From assembly GCA_963714975.1 (NCBI GenBank), contig CAVQQD010000002.1, positions 256,001 through 320,000 of the forward strand: a DNA stretch of 64,000 nt, in the 5' to 3' direction. The translations under genes were made by a program, and so were the position numbers. The notes below the pieces were generated by a model that made no database searches, was not told where the DNA came from, and worked only from the letters and a program-made list of their open reading frames with translations. Below are positions 11,036-64,000 of the stretch, piece by piece; position 1 is the stretch's first letter, and every line of letters starts with the position of its first letter. The stretch is from an uncultured Gammaproteobacteria bacterium (lineage in GTDB: Bacteria > Pseudomonadota > Gammaproteobacteria > JAURND01).

Positions 11036-11080
11036 TTGACAATTTCAAACGTAACCATTCAGCATCTTTTTGCGTAAAAA

Positions 11081-11200
11081 TCCTTCTCCCCTTGTGGGAG
11101 AAGGTGCCCGAAAGGGCGGACAAGGGGTAAGCTTGAAACCAGCAAGGAGCATTTTATTAGCTAAATGCTCATTGCTGCTTACCCCTCACCCGCGCGCCTT
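11081..11200 (+). repeat. REP-doublet (REPIN/MITE-like) element, truncated copy
   Basis: Near-identical to 25568-25720 and to the reverse complement of 39575-39728, including the internal spacer. Confidence 0.85.
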
Positions 11201-11223
11201 GGGGGTAGGGGGGGTTAAAAGGG

Positions 11224-11358
11224 TCAGCAGCTACCAACCAATAAAATAGTGATAGTCATACCAAAGTTTTTTATTTTTGTCAGGGTATCAACGAGGGGAG
11301 GGCGATGCCCTGGTTGACGAAAGCATTTAAAGGGGATGTTAATGTTATTATCATTCAT
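11224..11358 (-). CDS. Small 44-aa ORF downstream of cassette copy 1 (possibly a remnant)
   Basis: SD aggag then MNDNNINIPFKCFRQPGHRPPLVDTLTKIKNFGMTITILLVGSC*. Confidence 0.3.
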   Translation of the reverse strand: MNDNNINIPFKCFRQPGHRPPLVDTLTKIKNFGMTITILLVGSC

Positions 11359-11404
11359 GAATATGCTCCTGGATTTATAGTTGAAAAAACAACGAATCAA
11401 GGAA

Positions 11405-11495
11405 GCGGCAGCAGAGGATTTTTATAGGCGAGGGCGGAGGCGGTAGCTTAAGAGAAGGAGTGCCTCACGCCCTACCTATTTCCTCTGCTACCAGC
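11405..11495 (-). other. Long 3' hairpin of cassette copy 1
   Basis: On the minus strand GGTAGCAGAGGA..ATAGGTAGGGCG.GAGGC pairs with GCCTCCGCCCT.GCCTAT..TCCTCTGCTGCC; equivalent to 63056-63162. Confidence 0.7.
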
Positions 11496-11715
11496 CCACC
11501 TCCTCTTGTCCTGCATACCAGCCACTAAAAAACCCACAGCAAATCTCAACCTGATGCCAGCAACACCGCTGTGACATTCGAGGAAAATCTTTCGGCAAGG
11601 ATTTGTTGCTCCAGGCGCAAAATATCCGCCCAACGCAATGTAGGTGAAAAAAAATGAGTGGCATACAGAAAAGAGTTTTACGCAAACGCGCAATCGAGTA
11701 AGCTGTATTTGACAC
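11488..11715 (-). CDS. Small Cys/aromatic-rich protein, paralog of 62842-63066 (candidate type I toxin or leader peptide)
   Basis: GTG start after SD gaggt; 26 of 74 positions identical to the 62842 ORF without gaps; both stop at TAG followed by CAGAGGA. Confidence 0.7.
   Translation of the reverse strand: MSNTAYSIARLRKTLFCMPLIFFHLHCVGRIFCAWSNKSLPKDFPRMSQRCCWHQVEICCGFFSGWYAGQEEVGW
11676..11704 (+). promoter_or_regulatory. Antisense sigma70-like promoter inside the small ORF
   Basis: TTTTAC-N17-TAAGCT; conserved in copy 2 as TTCTAC-N17-TAAGCT. Confidence 0.6.
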
Positions 11716-16409: not shown

Positions 16410-16581
16410 TAAGGTGTCATCCCGAGTAAGGTGTCATCCCGAGTAAGGTGTCATCCCGAACGAAGTGAGGGATCTCATGAATGTGGCAAAGAATATGGAG
16501 ATCCCTCGCTGCGCTCGGGATGACACCTTACTCGGGATGACACCTTACTCGGGATGACACCTTACTCGGGATGACACCTTA
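16410..16581. repeat. Inverted REP pair with 17-bp tandem expansions in both arms
   Basis: (TAAGGTGTCATCCCGAG)x2 plus core on the left arm; core plus (CTCGGGATGACACCTTA)x3 on the right arm. Confidence 0.92.
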
Positions 16582-16608
16582 GGGGAGAGGGGATATTTGC
16601 GGAGAAGC

Positions 16609-25528: not shown

Positions 25529-25567
25529 GTCACCCCTCTACATACGATATGCTGCAGGTCATAAAAA

Positions 25568-25720
25568 TCCTTCTCCCCTGGTGGGAGAAGGTGCCCGAAA
25601 GGGCGGATGAGGGATAAACTTCAAACCAGCAATGAGCATTTGATTAGCTAAATGCTAACTGCTGCTTACCCCTCACCCGCGCGCCTTAGGCACGGCGGCC
25701 TCTCCCCCAAGAGGAGAGGC
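25568..25720 (+). repeat. REP-doublet (REPIN/MITE-like) element, full copy
   Basis: TCCTTCTCCCCTGGTGGGAGAAGG...CCTCTCCCCCAAGAGGAGAGGC; matches the 11081 and 39575 copies. Confidence 0.88.
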
Positions 25721-29667: not shown

Positions 29668-29717
29668 CTCCCACAAGGGGAGAAGGAAAATCTACCCACT
29701 CGATTCTACATAGAACC
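29668..29717 (+). repeat. 50-bp exact duplicate of 59-108 (REP half plus possible IS end)
   Basis: CTCCCACAAGGGGAGAAGGAAAATCTACCCACTCGATTCTACATAGAACC occurs at both sites. Confidence 0.85.
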
Positions 29718-62241: not shown

Positions 62242-62449
62242 CGCAATTTCCTTCTATTAAAAAGATGTGAACAATATCCCTACCATCTAGGGAAATTTGT
62301 GTGGTGATGCCATGTTCTCCAGGACGTTTCCCAGGTGGTGGCTTATCTGCATTTACAAAGATGGGGATATTTAAATTCAAAATATTGCAAAGGCGGGTTG
62401 GTATTTTCTGCATTTGTTGTAGCTCCTTGCGGAAGGAGTTTCAAAAAAA

Positions 62450-62596
62450 AATTTACAACTTCAAGTTAAAGTATATCCTTGAAGGATGTGAACATGCAAT
62501 CCTTCTAAATTAATTGAGCTCATACAAGAAAGTTTATCTGATAACTCACAGGAGAACGTTATGACCATTGCGCAACAATTTAGGGAACAGGGGCTC
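62450..62596 (+). pseudogene. Rpn/YhgA-like C-terminal remnant
   Basis: ...KYILE...(fs)LIELIQESLSDNSQENVMTIAQQFREQG, cut by a REP. Confidence 0.6.
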
Positions 62597-62601
62597 ATCT
62601 G

Positions 62602-62644
62602 TTTAAATCCCCCTTAATCCCCTTTGTCAAAGGGGGGAAATTAT
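62602..62644 (-). repeat. CCCCCTTT..AAAGGGGG-family REP
   Basis: Near reverse complement of 27723-27765. Confidence 0.82.
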
Positions 62645-62709
62645 TTTTATCCCTTACAGAGGAATCAATTCTTATTGAAACTTGTCGTAAGCTTTTTTTA
62701 AGAAAATGT

Positions 62710-62738
62710 TTGCATTTAACCAAAAGCCGTTGAATAAT
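62710..62738 (+). promoter_or_regulatory. Sense promoter of cassette copy 2
   Basis: TTGCAT-N17-AATAAT. Confidence 0.6.
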
Positions 62739-62741
62739 ACT

Positions 62742-62846
62742 GAAACCTCAGATGCTCACGCACCTGAGGCCGCGCCCTACAGATGGTGACACATCTGCGA
62801 GGGTACTTCCATAACCCCAACCTTTCTGGAGGTCGGCAGCCATGAC
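62742..62846 (-). ncRNA. Predicted cis-antisense RNA, copy 2
   Basis: On the minus strand: GGCCTCAGGTGC-GTGA-GCATCTGAGGTTT (G-U pairs, GNRA loop) and CCCT.GCAGATG-tgtcac-CATCTGTAGGG; ends approximate. Confidence 0.58.
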
Positions 62847-63066
62847 CTATTTAGCTTACTTCATTACGCGTTGGCGTAGAACTCTTTTCTGTAGGTTTGT
62901 CACATTTTTTTACCTGCTGTTATTCAGGCGGCTTTGCTGCGCTTGGATAAACAGGCTTTTACCTTATATACACTCCTCTCGTGTCCGCGCTGTGTTATGG
63001 AACTGGATAGGAGCTTGTGGCAGGTTTTTTGGTGACATTCATTCATTACAAGAGGGTAGGCAGTAG
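62842..63066 (+). CDS. Small Cys/aromatic-rich protein, paralog of 11488-11715
   Basis: SD GGAGGT at 62828-62833; ungapped alignment to copy 1. Confidence 0.72.
   Translation: MTYLAYFITRWRRTLFCRFVTFFYLLLFRRLCCAWINRLLPYIHSSRVRAVLWNWIGACGRFFGDIHSLQEGRQ
62853..62881 (-). promoter_or_regulatory. Antisense sigma70-like promoter inside the small ORF
   Basis: TTCTAC-N17-TAAGCT. Confidence 0.6.
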
Positions 63067-63162
63067 CAGAGGAGTGAGGTATGGCGAAGGGTCCCTGTAT
63101 CCTGCAGGGATGACGAGAAATTGTCTCTTCGCCATTACCTACTAAACCTCTGCACTGCCTAC
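63056..63162 (+). other. Long 3' hairpin of cassette copy 2
   Basis: GTAGGCAGT.GCAGAGG..AGGTATGGCGAAG pairs with CTTCGCCA.TACCT..CCTCTGC.ACTGCCTAC, followed by ATTTTT. Confidence 0.72.
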
Positions 63163-63226
63163 ATTTTTCATGTTGATTACCCAACACTTTCAGAAAATCA
63201 AATTCAATCATTTCTCGGAGAATTTT

Positions 63227-63649
63227 ATGACACAACAATCACAAACTATTCCTGTCGCACGTATTTTAGTAACAGAAGACAACCGAATGGCCGCAAAAGC
63301 CGCACAAGGTTTGTTCAAAGATAAAAATTGCCACGTCGTTGTAGAAGGTTGCGCTAATGCAACACTCGAACATTTACAGGATCACTTCGACCTGCTGGTG
63401 GTCGACCTAGGTCTTCCGGATTTTAGTGGCCTTATTCTTGCGGAGAAAATTCGCAACTCTGGTGCTCCACTTGCAACTGCCCCGATTGTGATTTTAACCG
63501 CCCATGGCGATGAAACGCATAAAACCCAAGCTAAAAAATTGGGATTAAATGGATTTTTGCAGAAACCCTTAACCTCTGCATTATGCGATAGATTGTTGTG
63601 GCGTTTTGTGCGTATGCCTGTCGATAAAAATTATTTTCTTGAGAATTAG
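63227..63649 (+). CDS. Single-domain response regulator
   Basis: ILVTEDN, VVDLGLPD, ILTAH, KPL; SD ggag before ATG 63227. Confidence 0.88.
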   Translation: MTQQSQTIPVARILVTEDNRMAAKAAQGLFKDKNCHVVVEGCANATLEHLQDHFDLLVVDLGLPDFSGLILAEKIRNSGAPLATAPIVILTAHGDETHKTQAKKLGLNGFLQKPLTSALCDRLLWRFVRMPVDKNYFLEN

Positions 63650-63714: not shown

Positions 63715-64000
63715 ATGGAAAAAATATATTCCCCGCATGACCGATTTTTTCGCGCGGCAATGAGCGAGCCGCGTGTGGCGAAGGCGTTTTTCGAACATCA
63801 TTTACCAGAAGAAATTCTCAAAACCATAGATCTCGACACCTTGCGGGTAGATAAAGAAATTTTTGTGGATTCAAGGCTAAAGCTAGCGATTACAGATATA
63901 GTGTTTTCAGTAAATTATGCTAACAAGCCTGGTTCTTTGTATTTGCTGCTAGAACATCGCAGTAGTTTTACTCGTTGGCAAGCATTTATTTTATTGGTCT
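63715..64000 (+). CDS. Rpn/YhgA-like recombination-promoting nuclease (runs off window end)
   Basis: PHDRFFR..FFEHHLP..IDLDTL..FVD..TDIVF..LYLLLEH. Confidence 0.88.
   Translation, partial: MEKIYSPHDRFFRAAMSEPRVAKAFFEHHLPEEILKTIDLDTLRVDKEIFVDSRLKLAITDIVFSVNYANKPGSLYLLLEHRSSFTRWQAFILLV

Follow-up and report, generated by a model that had tools for sequence, protein, structure and literature searches.

A multicopy structured leader module with a conserved minus-strand promoter candidate and a predicted antisense RNA ahead of orphan receiver-domain genes

Here, we mainly focus on the leader that precedes a single-domain response-regulator (receiver) gene in a 64,000-nucleotide stretch of contig CAVQQD010000002.1 (referred to below as the window) from an uncultured bacterium of the Gammaproteobacteria. 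Comparison of this leader with its paralogs and with sites in related genomes points to a promoter candidate on the minus strand, embedded in the first codons of a 74-codon leader open reading frame (ORF), from which an RNA of about 100 nt would be transcribed across the 5′ untranslated region (5′ UTR) of the sense RNA. We consider it reasonably probable (about 0.6) that this RNA is a cis-antisense repressor of the leader ORF, which in turn would gate the downstream receiver gene. The larger finding is that the leader belongs to a new, family-wide, multicopy leader module that is absent from Rfam. The window holds two copies of this module, copy 2 on the plus strand (which includes 62742-62881), whose parts come first below, and copy 1 on the minus strand.

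62710..62738, plus strand: sense promoter, made up of TTGCAT (62710-62715), a 17-nt spacer and AATAAT (62733-62738); predicted sense start near 62743-62745
62732..62846, minus strand: predicted antisense RNA of about 100-115 nt, with its start placed 7 nt after the -10 candidate
62746..62769, both strands: hairpin P1; on the minus strand a 12-pair stem with a GUGA loop, then UUUCAGUAUUAUU, the candidate end of the antisense RNA
62775..62803, both strands: hairpin P2, an inner stem (62780-62797) and an outer stem, with a loop that differs in every copy
62804..62846, both strands: hairpin P3 region, which holds GGAGG (62828-62832) and the start codon; on the minus strand a 15-pair hairpin beginning at the predicted antisense 5′ end
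62842..63066, plus strand: leader ORF of 74 codons, ending in a conserved TAG (63064-63066) at the 5′ foot of the 3′ hairpin
62853..62858, minus strand: antisense -10 candidate TAAGCT, put forward on its conservation across 44 copies
62865..62878, plus strand: hairpin P4, TACGC-GTTG-GCGTA, within the spacer of the antisense promoter candidate and assigned to the sense RNA
62876..62881, minus strand: antisense -35 candidate TTCTAC, preceded by the A-rich tract AGAAAAGAG (62882-62890)
63059..63159, plus strand: long 3′ hairpin of the sense leader, followed by TACATTTTTC, read from sequence and alignment
63227..63649, plus strand: single-domain receiver gene (PF00072, E 2.4e-18), with an alternative start at 63170
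about 11852-11411, minus strand: module copy 1, whose antisense promoter candidate reads TTTTAC (11676-11681) and TAAGCT (11699-11704) on the plus strand and whose leader ORF occupies 11488-11715 on the minus strand

The module is a regulatory leader of about 440 nt. A search of the whole genome (2.56 Mb in three contigs, about 43% G+C) with BLAST and iterated nhmmer returned 34 matches, 23 of them full length, and the copies sort into subfamilies named here A1, A2, A3, B1, B2, and B3. The anatomy was read from an alignment of the 23 full copies, in nearly all of which the orientation and the distance to the downstream gene are fixed. The two window copies share 72% DNA identity over their best block against 35% at the peptide level. 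The genome set used has no other species of this genus, and BLAST of the module DNA against 40 relatives gave no match. The EF-Tu of the genome stands alone in its 90% cluster, and its best named relatives, at 83-85% identity, come from metagenome-assembled genomes labelled Gammaproteobacteria bacterium and Coxiellaceae bacterium. A covariance model (R1), built on the antisense strand, recovered 20 sites in the own genome and 15 sites in five of eight other genomes of the family, all belonging to other genera, with E-values from 1.7e-10 to 1.9e-3. Run with stricter filters, the model had no match in 149 genomes from other families of the class, and it had none in 77 named loci retrieved via the receiver protein; nhmmer likewise found no match in 157 loci retrieved by that route, which thus gave no further homologues, the loci reached being mostly generic receivers of 20-46% identity. 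Rfam returned no match at gathering thresholds over the whole window and only three chance-level matches (E 6.8-9.9) within 62400-63400, and a narrow literature search found no description of the module.

An earlier note, made from the sequence of this DNA, had read TTCTAC-N17-TAAGCT on the minus strand in the best conserved block of the leader, and this reading is borne out: plus-strand AGCTTA at 62853-62858 is minus-strand TAAGCT, plus-strand GTAGAA at 62876-62881 is minus-strand TTCTAC, exactly 17 bases lie between them, and no other part of the two window copies is as well conserved as this block. The note had also made its proposal depend on TAAGCT and the 17-bp spacing being kept in further homologs, and the motif survived this comparison. 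The hexamer was tabulated for 44 copies from six genomes, comprising the 29 own copies that have the region and 15 copies from the five other genomes; in the own copies its position was set at a constant distance from the AAAAC block (no motif search being used) and in the relatives via the model together with a pattern that presupposes TA...T. The resulting form is TA(A)nnT, with T at position 1, A at position 2, and T at position 6 in 44/44 copies and A at position 3 in 43/44, while position 4 is G or A (22 each) and position 5 is C (38) or A (6). The variants are TAAGCT (22), TAAACT (15), TAAAAT (6), and TACACT (1). They follow the subfamilies, TAAGCT occurring in A, TAAACT in B1, TACACT or TAAAAT in B2, and TAAAAT in B3, so that TAnnnT holds in 29/29 own copies; the 15 relative sites have TAAGCT or TAAACT.

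The flanks of the hexamer are variable, the commonest base reaching at most 27/44 at six downstream positions and at most 29/44 at three upstream ones, with no flanking position above 75% bar one T; the minus-strand T four bases upstream of the hexamer (plus-strand 62862) is invariant (44/44). A box of the type TTT(T/G)(A/G)(C/A/T) lies 17 nt from the hexamer in 42/44 copies, including all relatives except the two copies of genus G008, and the A-rich tract ahead of it is taken by us to resemble a proximal UP-element half-site. At 7 nt downstream of the hexamer, where the antisense hairpin P3′ begins, 40/44 copies have a purine. Read in the sense frame of subfamily A, T6 lies opposite an unchanging third codon position in a codon whose first two positions vary, and the frame differs in subfamily B, indicating constraint on the nucleotide and not on the protein. 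Judged by its match to the consensus, the candidate does not exceed chance; judged by its conservation, it appears to do so.

If made, the predicted antisense RNA would by its geometry be antisense to the entire 5′ UTR of the sense RNA, including its Shine-Dalgarno sequence, and to the start codon. The minus-strand RNA from 62846 to 62732 has a predicted fold of three hairpins (-53.9 kcal/mol, z -5.60), against -37.3 kcal/mol (z -3.34) for its plus-strand complement, which agrees with the note's claim that the leader folds better in antisense; in the sense fold, the Shine-Dalgarno sequence is partly sequestered. Among the copies, comparison with dinucleotide shuffles gave the 5′ UTR a mean z of -4.82 in antisense and -3.38 in sense, the antisense value being the lower in 26/29. 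By minimum free energy in the 23 full copies, the 5′ UTR folds better in antisense in 22 and the stretch up to the end of the block does so in all 23, whereas the whole element folds better in sense in 22. Hairpin P1 has the minus-strand stem, GUGA loop, and U-rich tail that the note ascribed to it, and in subfamilies A and B3 the U-rich stretch that comes after this GC-rich stem (P1′) is complementary to the sense -10 box.

Covariation supports these hairpins. Alignments were made with MAFFT and by realigning 39 matches to the covariance model, which was built on the antisense orientation. In the covariance-model alignment, 93.7% of the cells pair, compared with 77.0 ± 0.8% in shuffles (0/500 as high) and 30-44% with slid partners, and 27/29 pairs change on both sides; by hairpin, such changes were found in 10/10 pairs of P1 and in 7/7 inner and 3/4 outer pairs of P2. 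We then counted the cells that pair by G-U wobble on one strand only, the other strand carrying an A-C mismatch. P2 has 53 antisense-only against 5 sense-only cells and P3 has 31 against 6, or 84 against 11 for both (own copies 49 against 4, other genera 35 against 7). One mid-helix pair of P3 is A-U in antisense in 18 copies and G-U in 17/39, the latter corresponding to a C-A mismatch on the sense strand. On the MAFFT alignment, P2 and P3 give 43 antisense-only against 4 sense-only cells, and the structure predicted in sense orientation from the same alignment shows only 5 G-U against 2 A-C cells. P1 has no strand preference, with 5 antisense-only against 7 sense-only cells in the own copies and 5 against 0 in the relatives, in which P1 is mostly gaps.

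From P4 onward, the asymmetry is the opposite. The five pairs of P4 carry 8 sense-only against 1 antisense-only wobble cells, with compensatory stems in copies L036, L042, and L050; the register of P4 fits subfamily A and the relatives and is shifted by one base in B1, and these counts are therefore given for subfamily A only. From P4 to the 3′ end, z is -6.59 in sense and -4.73 in antisense (lower in sense in 17/23), and the alifold consensus of this region on the sense strand contains 123 G-U against 15 A-C cells in subfamily A and 113 against 3 in B1 and B2 combined. Strand preference thus flips from antisense in P2 and P3 to sense at the hexamer, that is, at the predicted start of the antisense RNA, and this switch is the strongest single argument for a separate minus-strand RNA that starts there.

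The loop of P2 (alignment columns 86-93, about 62786-62791) differs in every copy: 24 own copies have 24 distinct loops, and in close pairs 87/181 loop positions differ, compared with 265/2790 elsewhere. Each copy may thus carry a private recognition loop, or the diversity may simply be neutral drift; a reading as diversifying selection was set aside, since in some pairs the neighbouring genes diverge to a comparable degree at third codon positions and the loops may be unconstrained. A 31-codon ORF on the antisense RNA of copy 2 (62843-62748, minus strand, starting 4 nt from the predicted 5′ end) was dropped as not conserved, since the sense start codon of most copies is GTG, which leaves no ATG opposite.

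The leader ORF has an open frame and an apparently unconstrained product. In 24/29 own copies, the first 66 codons are free of stops in this frame, whereas the other two frames mostly have 2-5 stops. In pairs of subfamily A, differences are distributed over the three codon positions as 165:125:147, without a third-position excess, and the same comparison of the genes immediately downstream, used as a control, gave 68:30:391. Random placement of the observed differences keeps the leader frame open with a mean probability of 0.285 per pair (62 ordered pairs). Both tests used pairs of equal ORF length only, leaving out L044, L052, L057, L061, L065, and other broken or shifted frames. The DNA block that subfamilies A and B have in common is read in a different frame in each, giving unrelated peptides; the product of the leader ORF matched no family in Pfam or NCBIfam (the only row having E 0.74) and no homologue among 5.8 billion clustered proteins, and no uninterrupted hydrophobic span was noticed in the leader peptides by eye, without computed hydropathy. 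A frame that is kept open and free of protein constraint is read here as a sign that translation matters and the product does not. At the level of sequence evolution, we infer a translated frame whose product is unimportant. The 15 relative sites all have an open frame of at least 57 codons. In genus G008 (L228 and L234), where the -35-like box and P4 are absent, the 5′ UTR and the hexamer precede an ORF of 79-98 residues that is well conserved between both copies by eye.

On the plus strand, 62742-62881 comprises the 5′ UTR, the Shine-Dalgarno sequence GGAGG, the start codon (62842-62844; ATG or GTG among the copies), and the first 13 codons of the leader ORF. A consensus scan called the sense promoter of copy 2 as TTTGCA-18-AATAAT (9/12), and its family form, TTGC(A/T)(T/A)-N17-(N)ATAAT, was found with an allowed spacer of N15-19 in 30/31 own loci and in 11/15 loci of the relatives. 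Near this promoter lies a palindrome of the type TAAGC-N4/5-CTTAA, which is located just upstream of the sense -35 box in the own genome (62686-62703) and between the -35 and -10 boxes in genus G004 (L224, L230, and L239); it may be a regulator binding site. The 5′ UTR contains P1 (in subfamilies other than B1 and B2), P2, and P3, the last of which involves the Shine-Dalgarno sequence. P4 is followed by the block AAAAC(T/A)NYTT, about 190 nt of further structure, and the conserved TAG stop, and in each of the two window copies the scan classes P4 together with AACTCTTTTC as resembling a sense-strand terminator. About 190 nt downstream of AAAACTCTTTTC is an AAGAGG stretch with which it appears to pair, as judged partly by eye. 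A preemptor-type attenuation switch around P4, considered by eye, was dropped, the P4 stems of L035 and L036 being different and their 5′ UTRs identical. At the tip of the 3′ hairpin of copy 2, a 28-nt palindromic mini-repeat (63089-63116) is inserted, which has about 20 more short matches across the genome, and other module copies carry a longer palindromic insert (about 90 nt) at the same spot.

The gene downstream of the module lies on the same strand and within tens of bases of it. According to BLAST clustering and ORF lists (and to PF00072 for copy 2), it belongs to the single-domain receiver family in 19/34 copies and to a family of 248-267 residues without a Pfam match in 6/34; the remaining matches are fragments. 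The downstream genes of the relatives are not receivers. In genera G002, G003, G004, and G006, they are mostly DUF3050 genes (PF11251, E 5e-76 for one), followed by ORFs that are PAS-like by eye. The receiver gene of copy 1 is cut short (11224-11400, minus strand), leaving a 58-residue ORF whose start matches paralogs of 163-174 residues, and no ORF of at least 60 residues follows copy 1. The receiver gene of copy 2 is followed by a YhgA/Rpn-like putative transposase gene (63715-63999; PF04754, E 1e-24), similar ORFs stand after several copies, and IS605 TnpB-like ORFs of 402 residues, judged by eye, adjoin two module copies.

The anatomy of the module, its conservation, and the strand asymmetry are observed; from these we infer that the antisense RNA is made and that it would act in the following way. 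A sigma-70-type promoter would drive a long, structured sense leader RNA, in which the act of translating the leader ORF matters and its product does not; a long hairpin, at whose foot the ORF stops, lies just ahead of the gene that would be regulated. Within codons 4-14 of this ORF, a weak but strictly conserved minus-strand promoter candidate (an A-tract, a TTTTRC-like box, 17 nt, and TAARCT) would fire an RNA of about 100 nt, which would start about 5 nt inside the leader ORF and fold into two or three stable hairpins. Pairing between antisense and sense RNA would block initiation on the leader ORF, possibly with cleavage of the duplex, and antisense transcription could interfere with the sense promoter 100 nt away as an alternative or additional route. 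With no ribosomes on the leader ORF, the structured leader would keep the downstream gene off through its structure, Rho-type polarity, or early termination.

This reading has to be weighed against an alternative in which no antisense RNA is made and the block serves the sense leader only. Here, P4 and its U-rich tail would form an attenuator or terminator, the next stretch would take part in a long-range helix, and the better minus-strand folding would be incidental, arising from a C/A-rich sense 5′ UTR that is kept open, for example, for the ribosome, Rho, or a protein. We regard this explanation as unlikely but by no means negligible, and a number of observations speak for it or otherwise against an antisense repressor. 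The match of the antisense promoter candidate to the consensus is poor (3/6 for TAAGCT and 2/6 for TTCTAC, or 3-4/6 one base on with a 16-nt spacer), and the consensus scan calls no minus-strand promoter here in either window copy. The presence of the hexamer in the 15 relatives follows in part from how it was placed; its register, which agrees with the first columns of the model, does not. P4 covaries and carries sense-only wobble pairs, P4 with its tail is scanned as terminator-like in both window copies, and the AAAACTCTTTTC-AAGAGG pairing also fits the conserved block; because these features of the sense RNA overlap the block, the conservation of the -35 box and the A-tract is not attributable solely to a promoter. 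The whole element folds better in sense in 22/23 copies, and the downstream sense structure is rich in G-U pairs. In addition, the helices and the covariance-model alignment were derived on the antisense strand, which favours the G-U pairs counted there and makes the figures lean towards the model; one invariant U-G pair accounts for 33 of the 84 antisense-only cells, the ratio without it being 51 to 11; and the copies are paralogs that represent perhaps a dozen independent lineages. A C/A-rich sense leader selected for other reasons could leave a G/U-rich complement that folds well. Finally, the scan does not call P1′ and its U-rich tail the terminator to which the note had likened it, and P1 is missing from B1, B2, and all other genera, so that the antisense RNA of these copies would have no obvious end. 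What the sense-only alternative leaves unexplained is that the hexamer keeps its T, A, and T in 44/44 copies amid varying neighbours, that the covarying P2 and P3 tolerate C-A mismatches in sense (84 against 11, including the mid-helix pair in 17/39), that the shuffle-corrected z favours antisense in 26/29, and that strand preference switches exactly at the hexamer. A minus-strand promoter and an antisense RNA appear, on balance, to be well supported by comparison, if unproven.

The nature of the target is a separate question, since the earlier note had taken the RNA for an antitoxin or a repressor by analogy with symE/SymR. Its antisense promoter and RNA of about 100 nt are favoured by the comparative evidence, the RNA as a prediction, and the toxin-antitoxin part has fared badly. 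A type I toxin-antitoxin system, with the ORF as toxin and the antisense RNA as antitoxin, multiplied like hok/sok, ldr/rdl, or symE/SymR, would fit the multicopy state of the module, the open frame, and the partly sequestered Shine-Dalgarno sequence, and the geometry matches that of symE/SymR (PMC1891008). It is nevertheless improbable in view of how evenly the differences fall on the three codon positions (165:125:147; 68:30:391 for the neighbouring genes), the different frames of A and B over their shared block with unrelated peptides, the lack of a Pfam or NCBIfam family and of a homologue among the 5.8 billion clustered proteins, and the lack, by eye, of an uninterrupted hydrophobic span. 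Nor is the module a self-contained two-gene locus, as it leads a same-strand gene, which is mostly DUF3050 in the four related genera. As far as tested, the module falls outside the type I toxin-antitoxin class, and 'repressor' is the better half of the note's proposal. Still less probable, to the point of being hard to sustain, is a decaying mobile or repeated element resembling a miniature inverted-repeat transposable element (MITE), whose hairpins and promoter-like boxes would have no present function. The roughly 34 copies, some of them truncated, the small palindromic repeats inserted in them, and the transposase-like genes nearby would suit such an origin. Against it stand the fixed orientation and distance to the downstream gene in nearly all full copies, the conservation of the module across genera ahead of an orthologous operon, the strong covariation, and the preserved open frame; no terminal inverted repeats were noticed, although no systematic search for them was made.

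The cis-antisense repressor proposed here shares parts with several known systems. SymR of Escherichia coli is a 77-nt RNA opposite the 5′ end of symE, with its promoter embedded in the coding sequence, and the module resembles it in having a promoter candidate in early coding sequence and a short RNA (about 100 nt as predicted here) opposite the 5′ end, including the ribosome-binding region (PMC1891008). The differences are that SymE is a conserved, SOS-induced toxin of the AbrB fold, whereas the ORF described here is not protein-constrained and has no family, and that the module leads another gene, occurs about 30 times in one genome, and continues for about 300 nt of further conserved sense structure. 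MtlS of Vibrio cholerae is a cis-encoded RNA complementary to the 5′ UTR of mtlA, an ordinary gene, for which occlusion of the ribosome-binding site has been proposed; complementarity to the 5′ UTR, such occlusion, and the absence of a toxin are the points in common (PMC4615234). MtlS, however, is single-copy and hits the structural gene itself, whereas a leader ORF is the proposed target here and the family of paralogs is large.

Replication control in plasmid R1 (CopA/CopT-tap-repA) and in the IncB and IncI plasmids relies on a stem-loop antisense RNA directed against the mRNA leader, which blocks a leader ORF of unimportant sequence. Translation of the leader ORF is needed for expression of the downstream gene in these circuits, and loop sequences set the specificity between related copies. 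The module has in common with CopA/tap/repA the predicted antisense RNA and a leader ORF of apparently unimportant sequence, the latter at the level of sequence evolution; it differs in being chromosomal, in standing ahead of signalling rather than replication genes, and in having a leader ORF of about 70 codons. The leader stop (63064-63066) and the receiver start (63227, or 63170) are separated by a gap of about 160 nt that holds the long hairpin at 63059-63159, and direct stop-start translational coupling of the R1 type is thus not found here. RNA-OUT and RNA-IN of IS10 are transcribed from face-to-face promoters, with an antisense hairpin RNA over the translation start of a multicopy element, and the antisense dose rises with copy number. 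Face-to-face promoters, antisense hairpins over the translation start, and multicopy occurrence recur, as features or predictions, in the module. The differences are that no transposase or element ends were found here, that two or three hairpins fall within an overlap of about 100 nt, and that the P2 loop differs per copy.

Further repeats in the window are unrelated to the module. They comprise a 17-nt tandem repeat of about 4-5 units (16514-16598), a 129-nt repeat pair of 91% identity (11075-11203 and 25562-25690), and an exact 50-nt repeat pair 29.6 kb apart (59-108 and 29668-29717).

The known cis-antisense RNAs whose promoter lies within the first codons of the target come from a few isolated loci, chiefly those of toxins, transposases, and plasmid replication genes, and, to our knowledge, nothing is known about the regulation of orphan receiver-domain genes. 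Should no such RNA be made, what is left is a large family of structured leader RNAs that is new and still absent from Rfam. If the proposal is true, the same design occurs about 30 times in one small genome and is common to at least five other genera, which would form a natural replicate set in which covariation, wobble asymmetry, and promoter invariance can be read from sequence. As a method, following the G-U strand switch along a conserved hairpin array would map the end of an antisense transcript from sequence alone. The target would be unusual, an open but freely changing leader ORF ahead of orphan receiver-domain genes, and the differing P2 loops would offer a test bed for how cis-antisense pairs avoid cross-talk. 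More tentatively, and only as a possibility, a copy-control circuit of plasmid style may have been taken over by chromosomal signalling genes and duplicated about 30 times, providing each orphan receiver with a private kissing loop and antisense repressor with little cross-talk; such a circuit may be ancient across genera and may also control the DUF3050/PAS-type operon.

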